A DNA stretch of 64,000 bases from Armatimonadota bacterium (GTDB taxonomy: Bacteria; Armatimonadota; Fimbriimonadia; Fimbriimonadales; GBS-DC). This document shows, one piece after another, positions 16,121 through 32,829 of this stretch. The translations under genes were made by a program, and so were the position numbers. Position 1 is the stretch's first letter; every line of letters starts with the position of its first letter. The notes below the pieces were generated by a model. It did not search any database. It was given only the letters and a program-made list of their open reading frames with translations, and had not been told where the DNA came from. The DNA lies in assembly GCA_037444405.1 (NCBI GenBank), contig JBBIML010000007.1, positions 32,001 through 96,000 of the forward strand, given 5' to 3'.

Positions 16121-17329
16121 ATGGACTTCACACTGAGCGAAGAGCATCTGATGGTGCGCGACACCGTGCGCCGCTTCGTGGAAAACGAGGTCAAGCCCTT
16201 CATTCGCGAGTGGGATCGGCACGGTGCCGACCCCAAAGTGTATGCGCGAATGGCGGAGCTGGGGCTGCTGGGAATCTGCATCCCGCGTCGATGGGGCGGC
16301 GCCGGGCTGGACTATATCAGTCTCGGCATCGCCTGCGAGGAGCTGGAGTATGGCGATACCTTCCTGCGCGTGATTATGTCGGTGCATGTGGGGCTGACCG
16401 CGCTCACGATCCTCTCGTGGGGCACCGAGGAGCAGAAGGAGCGGTTCCTGCGCCCGCAGGCGACGGGGCAGCGGCTGGGCGCCTTCTGCCTCACCGAGCC
16501 GAACGCGGGCAGCGATGTCGCCGGCATGCAATCCATCGCCCGACGCGAGGGCGATCACTACATTCTCAACGGCGAGAAAATCTGGATTTCGCTGGCGGAG
16601 GTCGCCGACCAGTACCTGGTGGTCGCCTGGACCGATCTGGAGAAGAAGGCGCGGCGGGATCATTCGGGCATGAGCGCGTTCATCGTAGAGCGCGAGCGCG
16701 ATGGCGTGAAGCCCTACACCCTGCACGGCAAGCTGGGCGTGCGCGCGGGCAACACGGGCGGCGTCGTGTTCGAAAATGTCGCCGTGCCCGTCGAGAACCG
16801 CCTCGGCGAGGAGGGCGAGGGCTTCAAAATCGCCATGTTCGCGCTCGATCAGGGGCGCTACACCGTCGCGGCAGGCTCCGCCGGGCTGATCCGCGCCTGC
16901 CTCGACGAATCGGTGCGCTACGCCCGCGAGCGCAAAACCTTCGGCAAGCCCCTCGCCGAGCATCAGCTCATCAAACAGAAAATCGCGCAGATGGCTGCCG
17001 ACTACGAGATCAGCGTGCTGCTGTATCAGAAGGTCGGCTGGATGAAAAATCGGGGTCTGCGCAACACGCGGGAGACCTCGCTGGCGAAATGGTACGCGAC
17101 GGAGGCGGCGCAGCGGGCGGCGAACGCCGCCGTGCAGATTTTCGGTTCCTACGGCTTCTCCGACGAGTACCCGGTGGAGCGCTTCTACCGCAACAGCAAG
17201 GGTGCCACCATCTACGAGGGCACCTCCGAGATTCATACCCTGCTCCAGGCAGACTACGCGCTGGGCTACCGCGTCGATAAGCCGTTGCGGGTCAATCTCC
17301 CGCCCTATCCGTTTGCTGAGGATCAGTGA
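16121..17329 (+). CDS. Acyl-CoA dehydrogenase
   Basis: [33 protein letters not shown]. Confidence 0.95.
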
Positions 17330-17342
17330 AAGCGTGCACGCG

Positions 17343-17423
17343 CCGAAAAATAAGAAACCGCCCTGAAGGGTGAGCCTTCAGGGCGGTTGGGTTATCATTC
17401 GGGCACCGACCTATCTTCCCGCT
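17343..17423. repeat. 81-bp direct repeat copy (5S rRNA 3' fragment plus terminator), att-like
   Basis: Identical to 25084-25164. Confidence 0.95.
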
Positions 17424-17671
17424 TTATGGGAGTGTCGAGGCGTCGTGGGAGGCAGTGATTACAGGTTCGAAGCAGCTGGGAGGCAAGGAGTTGAAAATCT
17501 AATGCAAAGACACTTAGCGCGACGAACCAGTTTGCGGAAATTGGGGCGCCTTTGTGGAGACTCCGATTCTGGAAAGGCGGCTATGCTGGAAAGCTGAGTT
17601 AAGTGCCTCTATGACCGAGCAAGTCGAGGTATAATTGTGTCAACAAGCCCAATTCTGGTGGGGATGCACCA

Positions 17672-18712
17672 ATGATTTGTAAGTGGTGTGGACTGGAGAC
17701 AACAAACTCGCAGGTCTGCGATTGGTGTAAGCGGCATCCGCTGGGTGAGAACCCTGCACTTACTCTGCAGCGTGAAGCCGCTCTCGCACGCAGGCAGCGC
17801 GAAGCACTTGTCCAAGAATTGCTCCCCAGAATTGAGCAACTGCTCGACGCTTATGCTTCCGATGGCTTGCTTACTTTTGAGGAGGAAGATCAGATTATAG
17901 CGATTGTTCAACAGTACAACCTGACTGCCCAAGAGCTTAGCCCGATTCTCCCTAAATGGAACAAACTGCGGTTGCTTCGAAGCATCTTCTTTGGCAACTT
18001 GCCGCAGCAAACCGAAAATGTACCTGTTTTCCTCAAAACTGGAGAGATATGCCACTGGATTACCCCCACGACGCTCTATGAAGAGCGTACACGGCGTGCC
18101 TACTATGGCGGTGGACCCGGCATAAGTATCCGGTTGGGTAAGGGGGTAAGGTTATGCCTTAGCGGGGGCTACCGCACTTCCATCCCGATCTATGAGGTGG
18201 CTGAGCTTGATAGCGGAACATTGGTAATCACCTCTGAGCGACTGGCTTTTCTGGGTTCGCGGCGTACTTTGGAGAAGCCGTTGAAAAAGATTGTTTCTGT
18301 ACTGCCCTACTCGGACGGGGTTCAGGTTCATTTCTCGAACCGCCAGAAGGCAGCATGTTTCAAGGTGGACGATGCTGACTTAGTGGCAGCAATCCTCTAT
18401 CAAGCCTGCCAGTTCCTTGATATGCCGCGCGCGTTCAGGCTCACTGTGCTCTTTACAGGCGGCATGTCTCAGGATGTTGTCGTGCCCAGCCAAGGACTCA
18501 CTATTGGGAGAGAGCGTGAAAATGACCTTGTGATTAACGAACCCGCTGTCAGTAGACACCATGCTCGGATTGCAATAGAGAAAAATCAACTGGTGTTATA
18601 CGACCTCAACAGCACTAACGGCTCGTTTGTAAACGGCAAGCGTATAACGAAAGCGGTGTTGCAACCTGGTGATGTGGTGCAGATAGGGAGCGCGCTCATC
18701 AAAGTGAAGTAG
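17672..18712 (+). CDS. Zinc-ribbon / PH-like / FHA domain protein
   Basis: CKWC..CDWC; GTLVITSERLAF; C-terminal FHA motifs IGR, VSRHHA, DLNSTNGSFVNG. Confidence 0.8.
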   Translation: MICKWCGLETTNSQVCDWCKRHPLGENPALTLQREAALARRQREALVQELLPRIEQLLDAYASDGLLTFEEEDQIIAIVQQYNLTAQELSPILPKWNKLRLLRSIFFGNLPQQTENVPVFLKTGEICHWITPTTLYEERTRRAYYGGGPGISIRLGKGVRLCLSGGYRTSIPIYEVAELDSGTLVITSERLAFLGSRRTLEKPLKKIVSVLPYSDGVQVHFSNRQKAACFKVDDADLVAAILYQACQFLDMPRAFRLTVLFTGGMSQDVVVPSQGLTIGRERENDLVINEPAVSRHHARIAIEKNQLVLYDLNSTNGSFVNGKRITKAVLQPGDVVQIGSALIKVK

Positions 18713-18759
18713 CCTCTGATGCCATAGCGGTTGAGTGCAACCAGCGCCCACCAGATTTA

Positions 18760-21700
18760 CTATTTTATCGCACTTAGCTTATCCAGCAACTTCTGGATGT
18801 AGTCCGCTTTCTCCATGAAGAGGATATGGTGTGCTTCAAACTCCTCTTTGGAATGCTTCCCTGTGCCAAAAGTGCGCTGAATCTCCTTGAAGGGGCTGGT
18901 GGAGAGGATGAACGAGGTCAGGAATACACGCTTGCCATCCGTTGGGGGCAGATTCGTGCCCATCCCCTCCAGCTCCTGATGGAGGCGAATCTTGGGGTCG
19001 TTGAAGCCGCCCCGCGCCATGCGCAACCCATGGGGGTCGATGAAGGCAATCCGTTGAGAGCGGTCGTCAACAACCCACAGGATGAAGTCGGGATAGAACG
19101 CTTCGCCGTGTCGCGAGTCGAAAAAGCCGATGCCCTTGCCTCGCGTCAGATTCCGCAACAGAAAAATTTGTTTTCCGTTGAAGCAGCGCGCGTTTTTCTG
19201 CAGATAGTCGCGCAGGTCGCGCACAAACTGCGCCTCGTTTGCGTCCAGTCCTGGGGGCGTCATGGAGTCGATTCGCTCGTCTGCCAGCAAGAGTGGGAGA
19301 TAGAGATGCCTGTCAAAGTGGATATGCGGAAAGTCCTGCGCCTCTTGCTGGTAGAGCCGATCCGCCTGATTCAGAAGCTCCTGAATGCGCTCCAGAAACT
19401 CCTGACGGGTTTTCGCAATCCTGAGCGTATATTGCGGTGGGGCGCTCCAGCAAAGGTTGGGGTCGTCATCAGTAAGCGGGGCGAGCTCCAGGTTCTGGCG
19501 CTCCCACTCGCGGCGTTTGCGGTCGTAAAAAGCGGCGAGATACTTTTTCAGCACGCTGAGAGCGATTTCCTCCACACGGCGCAGGTCGGCGAACTGTTTC
19601 GGATTCAGCATCCCCCCAGGGCAGAGAAGCGTATAGTTGCCCGTTTCCAGAATCTCACACAGGGTCGCCTGAGTGAAACTGAGATTGGGCATGCCTTTCA
19701 GCCGACGGAATTCTAACATTTCCAGATAGATGCGCTCCCAATTGAGCAGGGGCGCCAGTTTTTTGAGCGTGTCCGCCTGATTCGCGCCGCCCGCGCGTTC
19801 TATGCGCTCGCTCTCCTGCCCCGACTGCAGGCTCTCGATGCGCGGGCGCAGGTCAAGGCTCACCGTGAGGGATTCGTCGCACGCCAGCACCACGATGCAA
19901 TCGTCCTCGAAGCGTTTTCCCCTGGGCAGGCGCGGCGCATGGAGATTGTGTTTGAGAAAGTCGGTCTGTACCTGAACGGGAATGCGAACCTCCTCAAAAT
20001 CGGTTTCAATCCCCTCCTGTTTGAGGTATTCACGGAACTGCGCCATATAGTTGGCGCGGACGCCGAACACATTCAGCGTCTCCAGCAGGTGAATGTTGCG
20101 CGGGGCGTCGGCGGCGTTCAGCGCCTGACTGCGTTTGAGCGAGCGGTCTTTGCCCCACAGGCGAACCCCGCGCCCAAAGAGCTGGATAATCTGCGAACCC
20201 TCGCCCTTGCCGATGTTCATCAGCCCCATGCTGGACACACGAAAGCTATCCCATCCCTCCATGAACTTGCGCGAGCCAATCAGAATGTTCACAGGCGAAT
20301 CGGGGTCGTTGATGCGTTCGAACAACGAGCGAGCGATGTTCTCTTCTGTGCAGGCAATCCCCTGAGCAGCGATTCGCTTCTTTAGCCCCGCCACATCGCC
20401 GATGTTAATCACGCCGAAGTAGATCTCTCCTGCCCGCAAGCCAATCTCGCCGGGGGCGTTTTTCAGCTCCACCGCTTGCAGGGCGTTGCCCGCCTGGGCA
20501 TGGAACACGCTCTGCAGGATGGCGTCGTAAATCGCATGTCCGTCGGCGCGATACTTCCTGCGCAGGGCGGGAAACCGATTTTGGAACAGGTCGTTGCCGC
20601 TGTTGTCTTTGAGTCCCGACTGCCCGCTGAGGAGATGCACGATTTTCTGGCTCCACTTCTCCCTGTCGCTCAAGAAACGGTGCAAGAATCCCACTATCTC
20701 CTGCACATCGGTCAGGCTCTGTTTATCGTCGCCTGTGTTGCCCCCGTAACGCTGTGCCCGACAAACACCCACAGGGGCTTCTCCACATTAGACGGTCGCA
20801 ACGCCTCGTGGTTCTCGCTGTAGACCATCAACTGCTCGTAAAACGAAAGTAGGTTGCCCAACAGCATCCAATCGTTGAAGGCGTTGTCGGTCGTGCTGGA
20901 CAGGTTGAGAATATAGTAATCTTTGCCATAGCCGTCGTGGTAGAAGTGGGGGTACGAGTAGTCGAACAGGACGGCTTTCGCGTATTCGTTGAGCAGGTCG
21001 CGGCGTTTATTCGGAGCGGCGCCGTTGACAATCTGTCCGAAGGTGGCGCTGTATTCGAAGGTGAAGCCGTTTCGGGCGAGCTTCTCGCGCAGGGAGCGCC
21101 ACACCTCGCCGCTGGCGCCCCGATGCCCCTCGTCCACCAGCAGGAGGTTGTTCGAGCCGAACGATTCCACTGCCACGCTCAGCCCGCCGCCGCGCTTGCT
21201 CTCGGTTAGCTTGGTAATCTCTATCACCCGCACGATGGGCGCGTCGTTTGAGACTCCGAAAAGCCCGCCCTCGGACTCGCTATGATGGCGCGCCGCAATC
21301 CCGCTCTTGCGAAACTCCTCCAGATGCTGGCGCGAAAGCCCCTCGTTCGGCGTAATCAACAGGATGTTATCGTGCGCGACTCTGCCCGCGCTGTAGTGCA
21401 GGTACTGCCACAGGTTGAGATGCATCACCAGCGTCTTACCGCTGCCCGTCGCCATCCAGAAGGCGAGCTTGGTGAGGTCGTTTTCGATGAAGGGGTCTAT
21501 CTCGCGCCAGCCGTTTTCATCCAGAAACCTGTTCAGTGCGTCGAGCAGGGCGTCCCGCTCGTTGAAAAACCTGTCCAGATAGATTTCGGTGAACAGCGCG
21601 GCGAGGTACTGGAAATATTTGAGTTGCACAGGGGGCGTGCGCGTGCGGTTCATTCGCTCCAGGTGCGCTTTGATGTTCAGGTCGTACTGCGCCAGTTTGT

Positions 21701-21929
21701 CTTCGGGGATTGGGGCGTCCTGAATGCCGCGCAGGGCGTAAAAGAAGTGGCTGTGCCCCTCTTCGGTCCAGCCTTCCTGCAGGTCGTGCAATTTCTCGCG
21801 CAGGGTTTTGAAGTCGTCAGCCCCCAGCAGGCGACACAGATAGCGGTTCAGAGCCAGCCTGTGCTGGAGCAGAGGCGTGGAACCTGACTGCCCCACTTTG
21901 CGAGATACCTGCGTCGTCCGCCCAGCCAT
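18760..21929 (-). pseudogene. res: Type III restriction enzyme Res subunit, split by a frameshift
   Basis: MATGSGKT, VDEGH, YSATF in 21929-20712; EGWD, QLFGRGVRL and PDF..IDPHG nuclease in 20772-18760; one extra G in the G5 run (20741-20745) rejoins the frames. Confidence 0.88.
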
Positions 21930-21981
21930 CGCGCTCGTGGTCTGATTATACCTGTCGGGGCGCGGAAAAACGCTCCCGCGC

Positions 21982-24900
21982 TTATTGCGCAGTGCCCCCA
22001 AACATCAACCGTTTGAACTCTGGCTCTATCGGCTGGGCGGTCTCTACGGCGCAGACGCCGTTCACATAGAGCTGGTCGGGGCGCACGCCCTCGCCCAGAA
22101 GCGCGGGCAGGATGGTTTTCTCAATATAGTCTTTATCCGCCTTCAGAGCGGCTTCGTTCTCCCTCAGTTCCTTCAGCGGGCGCCACACGACCACAATCCG
22201 CCTGCCCCCCTTCTCGCCCAGCACGGCGCGATAGGGACGACCGCCGTTTTCAAACGCCCGCATGCGCCTGACCTCCAGCCCCAGCAGGTAGTTGAAGGTC
22301 TCCACCAGGTCCACGGGGTGTTCCACCAGCGCGTCGCCCTGATAAACTTTCAGTTTGTATTCAAACGGCTCCTCGAACTGCTCTATATCGAGCAGGCTGG
22401 GGCTGCCCTGCGTTTCGAACTCCAGCATATAGCGCAGGAGATACTCATCGCCGAAGGTTTCGAAGGCTTGCTGTCCCTCCTGCTGACGGCGCAGCTCGAG
22501 GTTGTTGAGCGCGTCTTCGTAGGATTCGAGGCGCAGGACTTTGAGGATTCGGGGCGTGCGCTCGATTTCTTCCTGCGTAGGCAGGCGTTTGGGCTTGCCG
22601 TCTTTCCATTCGGGCGCAAACACCACCTTTTTGAGGCGGGCAACCAGCACCGAATCGAAGTAGTCGCCCATCTCCACCAGAATGAACTTGCGCCGCCCGC
22701 CGTCCGCGCGATTGAGATTAATCACCGCGTGCCCCGTCGTGCCAGAGCCTGCGAAGAAGTCGAGGACTGTGGAAAGTGGAGTATTCCATGTTATCAACTC
22801 AACGAGGTGCGAGATAAGTTCAACGGGTTTTGGCGTTCCATAGCTCTTCTCTCCGAACAGCGCCTTGAATGCTTTTGTGCCATCTGCAGAAGTACCCACA
22901 TCACTGAGTAAATTGCCAGGTATCGAGGTCAGTCTCTGCCCCATGCGTATTTTTCGATATACAGTGATTTCACCAGTTTCAGGATCACGAACAAAGTCAA
23001 GATCGCCTTCTTCAAGCATCTTTTTGACCTCTTCTCGCCCGTACCGCCACCTGCCTTCGGAGCCGTCAGGGAGCTTTGGATAAGCATCTCCAAAGGGTGT
23101 CGGAATAGGAAAGTATAAGCTAGGGCGATCTTCGCGGCGTGCCCCTTGTTCTCCCCACTGTCGCAATAACTCTCGCCTGTAAGGGCCTTTCTCATCTTGA
23201 TACGGGCAATTTTCTACGATGCGCTCGGTAGGTTTCAAACCCAGCAAGCTCTCATTTTTGGCTACAAGTTCCACATGCTCGTGGCTAACCTGTATCTTGG
23301 TTCCTGTGCCCCCCTTGCCAGCCCGACTTATCCATACCATCGGTGCAACATAGTTTTGTGCGCCGAAAACATATTCGAGCAGCAGGCGGAGCCGTGGTTG
23401 TTCATTCTCATCTATGTTGATAAAGATTGATCCATCTTCTTCCAAACATTCTCGCGCCAGCGCCAGCCTGTCTGCCATCATGCTGAGCCAGCTGGAGTGC
23501 TGGTAGGCGTCTTTGTATATGAAGTCGTCGCTCCCCGTGTTGTACGGCGGGTCTATATAGATGCACTTGATGCGCTCGCGGTACTTTTCCAGCAGCAGGT
23601 TCAGCGCCTGAAAGTTTTCGCTGTGAATCAGCACGCCGTCAATCGCGTCATCCAGGTCGTCAAACGCTTCCAGCAAGCGCCATTTGAAGTCTTCCGAGAA
23701 GTGGCGGGTGTCCACCACGAGCGTCGGGTGCTGGCGGAGGAAGTCGTGGCTGATTCCCCCGTTGAAGGGGCCCTCATTGCGCAGGAGGTCGTCCAGCGCG
23801 TACAGCTCGCGCCACTCGTTGATTTGCGCCTCGTTTTGCAGAATCTCATCCCAGAAGCATCCAGGAATCTGCCCAATCGTGATGCAGTAGTCTGTGCGCA
23901 GGATGAATTTCTTCTTCTCGAACAGCTTTTTCTGAAACTCTTCAATCTGGGCGAGGAAGTCGATGATATGGTTGCCGATTTCTCGCATCACGCGCCCGCG
24001 CTGGAGGTGTTGCTGGGCGAGCTGGGCGTCGGGGGCGTTCAGCAGTTCGTCTAACCGCAGGCACTCGCTTTTGATGTAGAACTCCAGCTCACGCTGGAGG
24101 AAGCCGCGCAGGTCTTTGTGAATGAAAAAGTCGCTGGTGTTGCGTCGGGTGAAGCGGGTGAGGTGTTTGAGCAATCGTGCTGGTTCGCCGTCGCGTTCCG
24201 CCTGTTGCAGGAGCGCGCGTAGCGTTGGGTCGGGAACCTGCTCTATAATCGTGCGCGCTATCTCCTCGTTGAGTTTCTCCTGCGGCTTTTGTTGTTCGGT
24301 GCTGCCATAGATTTTTTGCTCGTCTTCCGTGAGCGGGCGGTACTCGAAAAAGCAGGTGAGGGTGTTGGTACTGGCATTCCAGACGACGGGCTGTTTGCTT
24401 GCAAGGATGAAGTAGCGTTTCTCGCCGCGGTTGTTGTTCTGCTCGGTGGAGGCGTTGCGCAGTTCGAAGGCAACCGAGTAGCCGTTGCAGAGGAAGCGGT
24501 AGTTTTTGAGGCGTTCGCCCGTTTTGATGTAATACTGGTCTTTCGTTGCCCAGTGGAGCATCACCTCTTCGCCGTTGTAGGGGACGGCGTAGGTTTCGTG
24601 GCGTCCGTAGCGGCGTTTGGAAATAAAGTCGCCGTCTTCGTAGTAGCGTGCGAAGAAGTTGTAGAGGTCGTTGTAGACGCGGATTTTGAGGTCTTCGCTG
24701 ACCTGGTACTGGGCGCGTTGTTCCAGCAGGAGTGTGTATTGCTGACCCAGTTTCGTATTGTGGTAGTTGCGCAGGTTGCCCTGCTCGTCGAGGGCGTGTT
24801 CGCCGAAAACCTTGCGGATTTCCTCTCTGGCGTTCTGGAGTTCCTGTTCCAGTCTATTGCGTTCTGTTTCGGCGTAGGAGGCGAACGCCTCGTCGACAAT

Positions 24901-25044
24901 CTGGGGCAGGCGCTGGGTGATGAACTGTTCGATCTGCTCGCGTTTGTAGTTGAGGATGCGGTAGATGCCGAAGTCCAGCTCGGCGCCATCGAACTGGAAC
25001 AGTCGGCGCAGCAGTTCCTGAAATCTGCTCAGGGCGTTTTCCAT
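21982..25044 (-). CDS. mod: Type III R-M DNA methyltransferase Mod (beta-class motif order)
   Basis: LDFGIYRI N-terminus, YIDPPYNTG, TPKP, DFFAGSGTT; ATG 25044 with GAGGAGG RBS. Confidence 0.92.
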   Translation of the reverse strand: MENALSRFQELLRRLFQFDGAELDFGIYRILNYKREQIEQFITQRLPQIVDEAFASYAETERNRLEQELQNAREEIRKVFGEHALDEQGNLRNYHNTKLGQQYTLLLEQRAQYQVSEDLKIRVYNDLYNFFARYYEDGDFISKRRYGRHETYAVPYNGEEVMLHWATKDQYYIKTGERLKNYRFLCNGYSVAFELRNASTEQNNNRGEKRYFILASKQPVVWNASTNTLTCFFEYRPLTEDEQKIYGSTEQQKPQEKLNEEIARTIIEQVPDPTLRALLQQAERDGEPARLLKHLTRFTRRNTSDFFIHKDLRGFLQRELEFYIKSECLRLDELLNAPDAQLAQQHLQRGRVMREIGNHIIDFLAQIEEFQKKLFEKKKFILRTDYCITIGQIPGCFWDEILQNEAQINEWRELYALDDLLRNEGPFNGGISHDFLRQHPTLVVDTRHFSEDFKWRLLEAFDDLDDAIDGVLIHSENFQALNLLLEKYRERIKCIYIDPPYNTGSDDFIYKDAYQHSSWLSMMADRLALARECLEEDGSIFINIDENEQPRLRLLLEYVFGAQNYVAPMVWISRAGKGGTGTKIQVSHEHVELVAKNESLLGLKPTERIVENCPYQDEKGPYRRELLRQWGEQGARREDRPSLYFPIPTPFGDAYPKLPDGSEGRWRYGREEVKKMLEEGDLDFVRDPETGEITVYRKIRMGQRLTSIPGNLLSDVGTSADGTKAFKALFGEKSYGTPKPVELISHLVELITWNTPLSTVLDFFAGSGTTGHAVINLNRADGGRRKFILVEMGDYFDSVLVARLKKVVFAPEWKDGKPKRLPTQEEIERTPRILKVLRLESYEDALNNLELRRQQEGQQAFETFGDEYLLRYMLEFETQGSPSLLDIEQFEEPFEYKLKVYQGDALVEHPVDLVETFNYLLGLEVRRMRAFENGGRPYRAVLGEKGGRRIVVVWRPLKELRENEAALKADKDYIEKTILPALLGEGVRPDQLYVNGVCAVETAQPIEPEFKRLMFGGTAQ

Positions 25045-25083
25045 CGTTGCCTCCTCTCTTTTGATTTTACCTGCGGCGTGCCA

Positions 25084-25164
25084 CCGAAAAATAAGAAACC
25101 GCCCTGAAGGGTGAGCCTTCAGGGCGGTTGGGTTATCATTCGGGCACCGACCTATCTTCCCGCT
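25084..25164. repeat. 81-bp direct repeat copy (native 5S 3' end plus rrn terminator)
   Basis: Identical to 17343-17423. Confidence 0.95.
25087..25129 (-). terminator. rRNA operon intrinsic terminator
   Basis: 14-bp stem aaccgccctgaagg/ccttcagggcggtt followed by TCTTATTTTT on the minus strand. Confidence 0.85.
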
Positions 25165-25256
25165 CCGTTGCCAGAGCAGTATTTTCGGCGCTGGAGGGCT
25201 TAACGGCCGTGTTCGGGATGGGAACGGGTGTTGCCCCTCCGCTATGGGCACCCGAA
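25139..25256 (-). rRNA. rrf: 5S rRNA
   Basis: CACCCGTTCCCATCCCGAACACGG..GTTAAG; paired termini. Ends approximate. Confidence 0.96.
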
Positions 25257-25604: not shown

Positions 25605-26355
25605 CAATCTGTTACTTTCAGCGTCTTTTGGACGCCTACTGACCTTGCCTCTGGCAAGGCGGGTAAGCCTTTCGGCTTACCTCTGCATGTCGCCATGCAG
25701 TTCGGACTGTCTCTTCACCCTGTGGGCTTCAGGGTGTCCGGCGTACAGTCTCTGAGGGTTCCAGATGAGAGTAGATGGTTTTGATATCGATCTTCCGATA
25801 AGCTCCGTTGTCGTTCATGCTCACAGCGATCTGCAGGATTGCTTTGAAGCCTGCAGGCGTGAGATGCTCTCTGTTATGGAGCTTTCGGACAATCGTGGCG
25901 AACTTCTCAAAATCGTGGCGTTTGGTGGTGCGGAGCGGATAGCGCTCAAAGAAGGGGATGACCTTCTCCAAGAGGTCTTTGCGTGATCGCACCACAAACA
26001 CCCAGGTTTTGTCGTTCGGTTTGCGACGGTCGTTCGGCTTCAGGTAGCCGCAACCCAGCGTGTCTCGGATGAGTTCCAGCACGCTCTTGTTTCGTTCGTG
26101 CTGGGAGACATGGAGTTCTGGAATGACCTGCCAGCCCAGTTTCGTACTGGGATTACGCTGGATGGCTACATGAAAGCTGCCTTCGCCGTCCACAAACCCA
26201 GCGATATAGTAGCCCAGACTCTCATCTGGCCTTCCCTGCTGATTGCCTGCACCTGACGCATTGTTACTCATGTGCTGAAGTATAGCACATGAGTAGCGCA
26301 GGATACTAACCAGGCTTCCCAGCATATAGCCGGATTTATAGACAGCACGGTGAGT
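25605..26355 (-). mobile_element. Group I intron at ~L2604 (751 nt)
   Basis: Exons GAGACAGT^TCGGTCCC; IGS GCTGTCT gives U.G at the 5' splice site; P/Q/R/S elements TGCTGGGAA, AATCAGCAGG, TCAGAGACTG, GAGACAGTCC; terminal G. Confidence 0.93.
25729..26271 (-). CDS. Single-motif LAGLIDADG homing endonuclease (L2604 intron)
   Basis: [28 protein letters not shown]. Start uncertain. Confidence 0.9.
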
Positions 26356-26685: not shown

Positions 26686-27321
26686 TTACCGTTTAGGCAA
26701 TTGCGTTCGTGCAGTCGCTGGCAATTTGTAACGCATTTCGGGTATCAGGTACGGTTCAACCAGTTCCAGGAACCCTGGGAGGTTCCGTCCTGGAATGACA
26801 ATCTGATACCCTTCGGCTTGCCGTCGCAGGTACGCTTCCAGTCCAAACCGTTCGGAAAGCAGCTGTGCCAGTCGCTCGACCTCCTCGCGCTGGAACCCCT
26901 GGGTGTTGAACAGCACGGCTTTCGCTTTGGGGTCTTTGAGGGAGCCGTCGTCCATGAACCAGTATGCCAGGCTACGGGGTTTCAGCCAGCGATGAAGCAG
27001 AGGTGGCACGCGCTTGCGCCCCTCGCGATAGAACTGGTGGGCGTAGAATCGGAAGGCGCCGTGGCTGACGGTCTGGAACCACCAGTTGCCGTTCGATTTC
27101 TGCTGGGGTGGTGTGAGAACCCATTCCTGGAAGAGCTGATAGAGGTGCTGCACATAGGCAGCGTGCGTGGCGCCCTGTTCGATTTTGAGGCGATAGGTGC
27201 GTCCGCGATTGTGCGTTTCCAGGTGGGCATCGCCCAGCAGGATTCCCACCAGCACCTCACGCTGGATGGGCGTGAGCTTGAGTTGCTGTTTATCGGTTTC
27301 GATGGCGCGTGTGTGTGCCAT
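26686..27321 (-). CDS. Double-motif LAGLIDADG (I-SceI-like, LAGLIDADG_2) homing endonuclease (L2262 intron)
   Basis: LVGILLGDAHL and LAYWFMDDGS; AAGGAGG RBS; stop codon lies in the 3' exon. Confidence 0.9.
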   Translation of the reverse strand: MAHTRAIETDKQQLKLTPIQREVLVGILLGDAHLETHNRGRTYRLKIEQGATHAAYVQHLYQLFQEWVLTPPQQKSNGNWWFQTVSHGAFRFYAHQFYREGRKRVPPLLHRWLKPRSLAYWFMDDGSLKDPKAKAVLFNTQGFQREEVERLAQLLSERFGLEAYLRRQAEGYQIVIPGRNLPGFLELVEPYLIPEMRYKLPATARTQLPKR

Positions 27322-27625
27322 AGCGACCTCCTTCGTCTGCGACGGACTGCACGCCTCCTGTGGGGAGGCTTCCGGTCGCCCGGAAGTTCAGACTGTCTCA
27401 CCATCCACGCAAGGTGGATGCTCGGCGTACAGTCGTTGAGGGGTCACGAGGACTTCCCTGCTGATTGTCCGCACCAGTCGCATTTTCAGTGGCGCAGGCG
27501 CCACTAGCGCTGGATGCTGCACCCCTTCCTCAAAGCACGGAGGTGCGGCTTTGAGTGAGGGGACGGACTTCCCAGCATATAGCCGAGTTTGCCTCCGATG
27601 TTGCCATCGGAGCGCCCCACTGTTG
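26698..27625 (-). mobile_element. Group I intron at ~L2262 (928 nt)
   Basis: Exons GGGGCGGTCGCCT^CCTAAACGGTAACGG; TGCTGGGAA, AATCAGCAGG, TCAACGACTG, GAGACAGTCT; terminal G. Confidence 0.93.
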
Positions 27626-27928
27626 AGGCGACCGCCCCAGTCAAACTACCCACCTAAGACTGTCTCCGAACCGGCTCACGGTTCGGGTTAGCACTTCAGC
27701 AGACCAAGGGTGGTGTTCCATTGACGCCGAAGCTCCCACCTACGCTCTACATGATCTGCCAAAATGCAATCTCAGGCTGTAGTAAAGCTCCATAGGGTCT
27801 TTCCGTCCCACCGCAGGTAACCCGCATCTTCACGGGTAGTACAGTTTCACCGAGAGTCCCGCTGAGACAGTGGCCCAGTCGTTACGCTTTTCGTGCGGGT
27901 CGGAATTTACCCGACAAGGAATTTCGCT

Positions 27929-31020: not shown

Positions 31021-32552
<1,532 letters not shown>

Positions 32553-32667
32553 GAAAACGGTCGCGTTTTCTGATCCTGGACGGCTCGCAAAGCGCCTTAC
32601 CTGCCCGGTTTTCAAGGTGCACATCCACAACTGCCGACCCTCTCCGCTGGAGCAATCGGCAGGGGAC

Positions 32668-32815
32668 ATTATACCATGCCCCGAACGCTTTTGTCAAGGG
32701 GTTCGGGGCTTTTTACGCCCGTTTGCCCCATCTTTCGACGGGATTCCCGCCCGCTGGATTGTCCCTTCCCAGCAGGCGGGCTTTAATATACCATGCAACC
32801 TCCCCCCTTTGTCAA
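32668..32815 (-). promoter_or_regulatory. Tandem rRNA promoters P1 and P2
   Basis: TTGACA-18-TATAAT (32697-32668) and a TTGACA/TATATT pair (32815-32785); both CCCCTTGACAAA...GCATGGTATA. Confidence 0.9.
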
Positions 32816-32829
32816 GGGGTCAGGGGGGA

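Follow-up and report, generated by a model that had tools for sequence, protein, structure and literature searches.

The 64,000-nt window analysed here (C7:32001-96000 of the genome G000, an Armatimonadota assembly of 2.68 Mb in 40 contigs) contains a 7,660-bp block that carries the genes of a type III restriction-modification (R-M) system together with a gene for an FHA-domain protein. The block is horizontally acquired DNA that lies behind the terminator of the sole rRNA operon (rrn), and it is enclosed by two copies of an 81-nt direct repeat (Table 1). A repeat search of the window revealed that the two copies are 100% identical and lie 7741 bp apart, counted from start to start; since an 81-mer is matched exactly, a chance origin is excluded. 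Each copy is made up of nt 92 to 117 of the 5S rRNA (26 nt) and of the 55 nt downstream of 5S, and in both copies these 55 nt hold a hairpin of 14 pairs that precedes a T-rich tail on the rrn strand. According to Rfam, rrn is encoded on the minus strand, with 16S at 31022-32553, two spacer tRNAs, 23S, and 5S. Throughout the assembly, the 81 bp occur twice, and 5S, 16S, and 23S once each, all on the same 245-kb contig; the complete genome of a relative, G012, has one 5S gene as well. With a single rrn operon in the assembly, collapsed rrn copies are ruled out as the source of the repeat. Since the rrn end is duplicated around the block, the 5S gene and its terminator were both left intact. The first-pass annotation of this DNA had reported the exact repeat, its composition from a 5S 3' end and the rrn terminator, and a geometry with the intact 5S gene at one end and a displaced 3' fragment plus terminator at the other, all of which we could confirm; the artefact it had warned of, a repeat produced by collapsed rrn copies, can be put aside.

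Table 1. Position of the block, its genes, and its borders in the window
Feature	Position	Strand	Remarks
Acyl-CoA dehydrogenase gene (acdh)	16121..17329	+	Convergent with rrn; stop codon 13 nt from repeat copy L
Repeat copy L	17343..17423		Terminator at 17343-17397 plus 5S nt 92-117 at 17398-17423; adjoins acdh
IS630-like DDE_3 element, truncated 3' end	17424..17517	+	Last ~23 codons, stop codon, and terminal bases
FHA gene	17672..18712	+	346 amino acids; N-terminal Cys-rich motif, C-terminal FHA domain; G+C content ~0.52
res, C-terminal open reading frame	18760..20772	-	PADLOC REase_III PDLC03654, positions 455-1123 of 1154; E value 6e-87
res, N-terminal open reading frame (ResIII helicase part)	20712..22001	-	REase_III profile positions 18-322; E value 1e-77
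Type III mod gene	21982..25044	-	1020 amino acids; Pfam N6_N4_Mtase; PADLOC MTase_III, E value 3e-184
mod leader with ribosome-binding site	25045..25083	-	Part of the cargo
Repeat copy R	25084..25164		Working terminator plus 3' end of the intact 5S gene
Intact 5S rRNA gene	25139..25255	-	Rfam 93.9 bits, model 1-120; sole 5S in the assembly

Read in the direction of rrn, the terminator is followed by the 39-nt leader with its ribosome-binding site, mod, res, the convergent FHA gene, a 154-nt spacer, and the stump of an insertion sequence (IS). Similarity between the leader and the sequence in front of mod in a related cassette (locus L054) extends to within ~3 nt of the repeat, and therefore, the cargo truly begins at the repeat boundary. 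Gene order and protein families are those of a type III R-M system, and the mod, res, and FHA genes named in the first-pass annotation are indeed present, but res is not intact: a −1 frameshift splits it into two open reading frames (ORFs), which overlap at 20712-20772. In the related cassette at locus L052, res is an intact, single ORF of 1088 amino acids. We also examined four sequencing runs (X1 to X4) as k=31 contigs; X1 is the probable source of the assembly and hence not independent of it, and X2 to X4 belong to the same study. The X1 contigs have the same frameshift sequence as the window, and the res variants in X2 to X4 carry one extra base at 20732 or 20737. To judge from its sequence, res has probably decayed in G000, leaving mod as an orphan methyltransferase. 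A segment of mod of ~770 nt (22768-23538), which is probably the target-recognition region, is unrelated in nucleotide sequence to mod of L052, although the two genes are 94% identical elsewhere. The segment looks swapped, and the cassettes of G000 and L052 probably methylate different sites. Among 60 relatives, none has a close orthologue of the FHA protein, and apart from generic FHA-domain matches, there are just matches to its N terminus (42%) in G023 and G025; its use as a query retrieved no related loci from the genome contigs or metagenome contigs searched.

The foreign origin of the block is apparent from its base composition and its distribution. Its G+C content (0.51 to 0.61 across 17.4-25.1 kb) compares with 0.61 to 0.65 for every contig, and a 19-kb query found it in none of five close relatives (G001, G002, G003, G006, and G011), of which G001 and G006 alone gave short mod/res matches of 65 to 81%. 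The Mod family is very widespread across phyla. The mod-res pair of L052 aligns with that of G000 at 94.0% identity over 1506 nt and at 94.5% over 3996 nt, and apart from 22768-23538, the match extends exactly from the start codon of mod to the end of res. The genes that flank L052 are 70 to 76% identical to their G000 counterparts, and downstream of 5S the L052 genome has a sequence in common with G011, a genome of genus g5 without the cassette. Further copies were found at L053 (in G009) with 83 to 92% identity and at L054 with 72%. These three cassettes lie at three different sites, none of which is a 5S gene (0/3), and therefore, mod-res is mobile between genera without being bound to 5S.

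At the edge of the block that adjoins the displaced 5S fragment, positions 17424-17517 have 88% identity to the terminal ~94 nt of a repeated element with which two G009 contigs end, and the end of the ORF in the G009 copy matches Pfam DDE_3 with 34.1 bits (cut-off, 28.6). We assume that DDE_3 denotes the IS630 family, and the name of the stump rests on this assumption. What is present in the block is this terminal ~94 nt, rather than an intact transposase with both terminal repeats. The interior of the IS is joined directly to nt 92 of 5S, with ~1 nt of microhomology, at a junction that we call J2. Since the truncated IS abuts the 5S fragment without a gap, J2 is an illegitimate junction. Two short similarities, an out-of-register one between the acdh spacer and the mod leader (shared GCGTGC) and one between 5S and the IS near J2, were set aside as possibly due to chance.

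The sequencing runs give a second view of the borders. The X1 contigs cover the whole stretch with 0 differences, including the acdh|repeat, mod-leader|repeat, and repeat|cargo junctions, and they end 30 nt into the repeat from both the acdh side and the mod side. Hence, the four flanks are all real, with their pairing unphased. In X2 to X4, depth is 0.4-2x on acdh and ~6-24x on the cargo, with no contig cover at ~22.8-23.5 kb. Record 16 of X3 (5416 nt) and record 10 of X2 (2245 nt) contain res, the FHA gene, the IS stump, the 5S fragment, and the terminator, with res ~95% identical to the window and 5 differences in the 1402 nt from FHA to terminator. These contigs match down to exactly 17343, and a further 843 nt are unlike the acdh flank. 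The sequence in front of mod in X2 to X4 is L052-like (loose end at 25044). X2 and X3 have no loose end at 17343 and one long loose end each before 25059, of which 30 nt are the reverse complement of an L052-type res tail. From these ends, we read the X2 and X3 contigs beyond 17343 as 25 nt of the mod leader, probably followed by an L052-type res tail. Consistent with this, the FHA variant T315S (18614 A>T) is found in three Logan contigs, and a 99%-identical variant of the 103-amino-acid ORF that follows res in L052 in two, and the longest contig of either set has 5416 nt.

The organism in X2 to X4 may thus have an L052-type locus that holds an insertion made up of a G000-type res end, the FHA gene, the IS stump, the 5S fragment, the terminator, and a 25-nt leader, with its own res tail next to it. 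The inserted 5S fragment and terminator match the rrn end of G000, with one difference, and not that of the recipient genus; hence, the DNA was transferred from a G000-like genome. Furthermore, the order IS stump, 5S fragment, terminator, mod leader is absent from the assembled chromosome, which implies that the 7,741-bp unit once existed as a circle or in tandem. The L052 sequence, taken together with the loose end at 25059, suggests that the insertion in the L052-type locus is flanked by a duplication of ~20 nt of the res tail (window, ~18744-18800); this would be a smaller version of the same topology, an insertion with target duplication.

In sum, our data point toward an R-M insertion with long target duplication, brought about by one illegitimate join and by homologous recombination at the rrn end, a reading to which we give an even chance of being correct. 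In our model, J2 would have arisen by fusion of the interior of the IS630-like element to nt 92 of 5S in a genome in which the cassette already lay behind 5S and its terminator. The product would be the 7,741-bp unit, circular or in tandem, with one copy of the 81-bp rrn end. RecA-type homologous recombination with the resident rrn end over 81 bp, and possibly over more rrn sequence, may then have placed the unit between the 5S-terminator and acdh, either by Campbell-like integration or by a double crossover from the tandem form into a conspecific chromosome. Either route of integration would result in exact 81-bp repeats and would leave 5S and terminator intact, and from the flanking repeats, the circle or tandem could form anew. 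For the secondary insertion in the other genus, homologous crossing-over within res would have been paired with an illegitimate joint between leader and res tail. As for the uptake of DNA, homologues of ComEC and DprA are present in G000 and lend weak support, since both are widespread in control genomes. The proposal of the first-pass annotation that the cassette was moved by homologous recombination, with the rrn end as landing pad, fits this evidence well and is supported in outline.

Several points weigh against this reading. The identity of the repeat copies (81/81) equally fits a very recent duplication in situ, and in the source genome, which is metagenome-assembled, the two copies are unphased by reads. 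In X1, the acdh flank has a depth of ~25 and the cargo one of 16-20, which may reflect a mixed population or a mis-join. The unit would also have had to be transferred as a circle without replication functions. The permuted junction is deduced from k=31 contigs, a 30-nt loose-end consensus, and the circumstantial agreement of the 5416-nt sizes, and De Bruijn contigs can mis-thread a repeat of 81 bp. The empty site expected by the first-pass annotation, a simple 5S-terminator-acdh junction, was not found: none of 21 relatives has the terminator or a piece of 5S downstream of acdh, both the terminator and the genes that follow 5S differ in each of three genomes of the same family (G001, G003, and G006), and 5S is missing from the assembly of the nearest relative, G002 (~95% identity). 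Given that no relative offers an empty site and that 5S of G002 is unassembled, the ancestral 5S-terminator-acdh junction is hypothetical. Nor is the arrangement of G000 fixed in all relatives, an outcome for which the first-pass annotation had also allowed; the relatives do not share it.

An origin in situ, without any insertion, is the alternative that survives best, and we consider it unlikely. The 5S fragment and terminator next to acdh would then be the stump of a second rrn copy or of a tandem duplication, and a deletion would have joined the interior of the IS to nt 92 of 5S. Indeed, the 5S|IS junction is an illegitimate join of the deletion type, and 5S remnants behind a normal 5S gene at rrn ends are described for other bacteria (PMC7812874). 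Furthermore, the rrn neighbourhood is heavily rearranged among the relatives. Downstream of acdh, about six genomes of genus g3 are alike and all others differ. In G003 and G011, acdh and rrn are neighbours too, in other orientations, and the side of rrn on which acdh is found varies among G003, G011, and G000; in G002, both acdh and the genes upstream of 16S are found in contexts other than those of G000. With acdh and rrn contexts that differ in this way, on the acdh side and, between G000 and G002, on both flanks, the rrn neighbourhood is a rearrangement hot spot. However, the assembly has one rrn operon, complete G012 has one 5S, and this reading would call for a second operon whose 55-nt terminator is identical. 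The permuted terminator-leader junction in the other genus would also be unexplained, unless a tandem duplication is added, and with this addition, an origin in situ merges with the R-M insertion proposed above.

Some further features of the operon and its surroundings may be noted. Compared with the ~95%-identical G002, the rrn context of G000 differs at both operon ends. A piece of ~38 nt of the rrn promoter (window, 32790-32827) lies in G002 at the rrn leader and also next to protease genes (G002:C5 ~27620-27660 and G002:C15:300-335; loci L149 and L150), forming a duplicated junction segment. At ~9220-9800 of L035 (G002:C7), acdh is followed by a short degenerate ORF, poly-T-rich hairpins, and then genes that are found on contig C14 of G000; the short ORF presumably resembles the N terminus of a transposase. 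The 23S gene of the window has two insertions relative to G001 and G006 (25605-26355 and 26698-27624, minus strand), each with a LAGLIDADG homing-endonuclease ORF (25729-26325, LAGLIDADG_1; 26686-27321, LAGLIDADG_2), and Rfam detected a group I intron core in the second one only (27369-27635). Both are apparently present in G011, and neither is in G001 or G006.

A mis-phased assembly, in which the chromosome would run from acdh through the terminator to 5S and the 7.7-kb unit would be a separate circular or tandem molecule, or belong to a co-occurring organism, threaded through the 81 bp, appears distinctly unlikely. It would suit a metagenome-derived genome and k=31 contigs that break at the repeat and cannot phase it, and it could account for the lower depth of the cargo in X1 as well as for the sister samples, in which the cargo is well above acdh. 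However, the unit has no replication gene, and the cargo in X1 shows 0 differences from the window, including the frameshift specific to G000 and the middle segment of mod, at a depth of the same order as that of the chromosome. The ends of the cargo also carry the species' own 5S and terminator sequence, which is different in relatives of the same genus, and 81 bp is below usual read lengths, so that assemblers should normally phase it.

We also searched for an enzyme that could have inserted the block. Pfam, PADLOC, and NCBIfam found no recombinase and no intact transposase in it; the first-pass annotation was therefore right that the block holds no intact gene of this kind, and it had missed the 94-nt IS630-like stump. 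In the whole genome of G000, there were no matches to the Resolvase family of serine recombinases and four matches to Phage_integrase, on contigs C4, C37, C26, and C6, none of which is the rrn contig. The matches C4:1042-1554 and C37:4725-5237 are same-scoring copies of a tyrosine recombinase of 377 amino acids, on contigs of 1.7 and 8.1 kb, and probably represent a mobile element present in more than one copy, and no 5S-like sequence is linked to either of them. Duplicated 5S 3' ends, for which the first-pass annotation had suggested a search in related genomes, were looked for downstream of 5S in seven relatives, with 11-14 kb of sequence at three of the loci and 1.4-3 kb at four, and a second copy of the genome's own 5S end and terminator was present in none of them (0/7). 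A 26-nt pattern of the 5S end, with up to 3 mismatches allowed, matched 4 of 151 genomes of the order and is uninformative on duplicated ends in the remaining 147. When genome contigs and metagenome contigs were scanned for exact patterns of the repeat or of the 5S|IS junction, there were 0 matches, where some patterns, including the metagenome one, spanned position 17389, which varies in X2 to X4, and were blind to that variant. The genomes searched included the unpublished genome G054, on which no claim rests.

Hence, a site-specific island or decayed satellite, as favoured in the first-pass annotation, for which a recombinase from elsewhere would have used the 5S 3' end and terminator as attB and an 81-bp attP on the element, restoring 5S, is highly improbable: it would explain the tRNA-type geometry with an intact RNA gene, a displaced 3' fragment, and an exact direct repeat, an attP-like permuted junction appears to exist, and the tyrosine recombinase of C4 and C37 might act in trans, but neither the block nor the rest of the 245-kb contig encodes a recombinase, the element ends on one side in a truncated IS that an accidental junction fuses to nt 92 of 5S, the closest copies of the cassette are at non-5S sites (3/3), the piece in the other genus sits inside res at an illegitimate joint and not at 5S, none of the seven relatives searched downstream of 5S has a duplicated 5S end, and the 81 bp are present just twice in the genome.

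If the R-M insertion with long target duplication is the right reading, a defence cassette has settled behind an essential, single-copy rRNA operon without harm to the operon and without an integrase, with the help of host recombination only. It would extend this type of insertion to a hot-spring or subsurface lineage and to an rRNA gene as the target, and it would offer a concrete natural case in which excision and re-entry, both unproven steps in the mobility of R-M units, can be tested. In a bolder form of the idea, which is tentative and on balance doubtful, the 81-bp rrn-end repeat serves as recombinase-free attachment homology, by which the unit would cycle between an integrated state, a tandem or circular state, and re-integration and would jump between genera, with the ends of rRNA operons, which are conserved and highly transcribed, as preferred landing pads. 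If true, the permuted junction in the other genus would count as evidence from nature for release and re-infection, two steps of the "virus-like life cycle" proposed for R-M units. In any case, the locus calls for caution in annotation, since island finders that read a repeated RNA-gene fragment as integrase-mediated would misclassify it.

Insertion with long target duplication was reportedly described for restriction-modification units by Nobusato et al. in 2000 (Gene 259:99). The class as defined by Furuta, Abe and Kobayashi in 2010 (PMC2853133) comprises inserts of <20 kb with R and M genes, repeats of >30 bp, and no mobility genes; it includes R-M systems of types I to IV, with repeats of 107 to 208 bp for type III, and the repeats often span the end of a gene and leave the target intact. 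Homologues of R and M are likewise found inside our insert, although res is frameshifted, and its size of 7,660 bp and repeats of 81 bp are within these limits; a relative with an empty site is the single element of the definition that is clearly lacking. As to genes of other mobile elements, the unit holds none that is intact, but the 94-nt IS630-like stump forms one end of its cargo. An R and M insert with target duplication, no intact integrase or transposase, and signs of horizontal transfer unite our case with that class. It differs from the cases presented there in its target, the 5S 3' end and the rrn terminator ("rRNA" occurs 0 times in the main text of that paper), in the lack of an empty-site genome, and in the truncated IS at one end of the cargo. 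The same paper proposes a cycle of insertion, repeat-mediated amplification, and release, of which release and re-infection lacked experimental evidence; our data provide indirect evidence that a circular or tandem form existed and that the unit was passed on.

The locus resembles islands and prophages in tRNA or tmRNA genes in its intact RNA gene, the displaced 3' fragment, the long exact repeat, and the foreign defence cargo of low G+C content. It differs from them in that it has no integrase, no defined termini, and no recurrence at the same target: direct repeats of an RNA-gene 3' end are present, and neither a recombinase in or next to the island nor, at the three related cassettes and the seven loci downstream of 5S, a recurrence in other genomes was found. 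A limited literature search turned up no case of 5S as the target of an island. Classic homology-facilitated illegitimate recombination mostly deletes recipient DNA and does not duplicate it, unlike the present case. Its combination of a homologous anchor on one side with an illegitimate joint of short microhomology on the other (PMC6382021, with reference to Meier and Wackernagel 2003) is nevertheless what the secondary insertion, with its crossover in res and the joint of leader and res tail, would resemble, to judge from the reconstructed sequence. Stepanov and Fox in 2021 (PMC7812874) discuss 5S remnants at distal rrn ends as substrates for homologous recombination and horizontal transfer. 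Like these remnants, our fragment is a partial 5S downstream of a working 5S gene, with a copy of the terminator; the remnants treated there are long 5S-like cores with insertions that lie near the operon and enclose no cargo, whereas ours is a 26-nt fragment plus terminator with 7.7 kb in between. In sum, a 5S-targeting integrase is not supported, and we propose the locus as a further case of a known type of R-M insertion.

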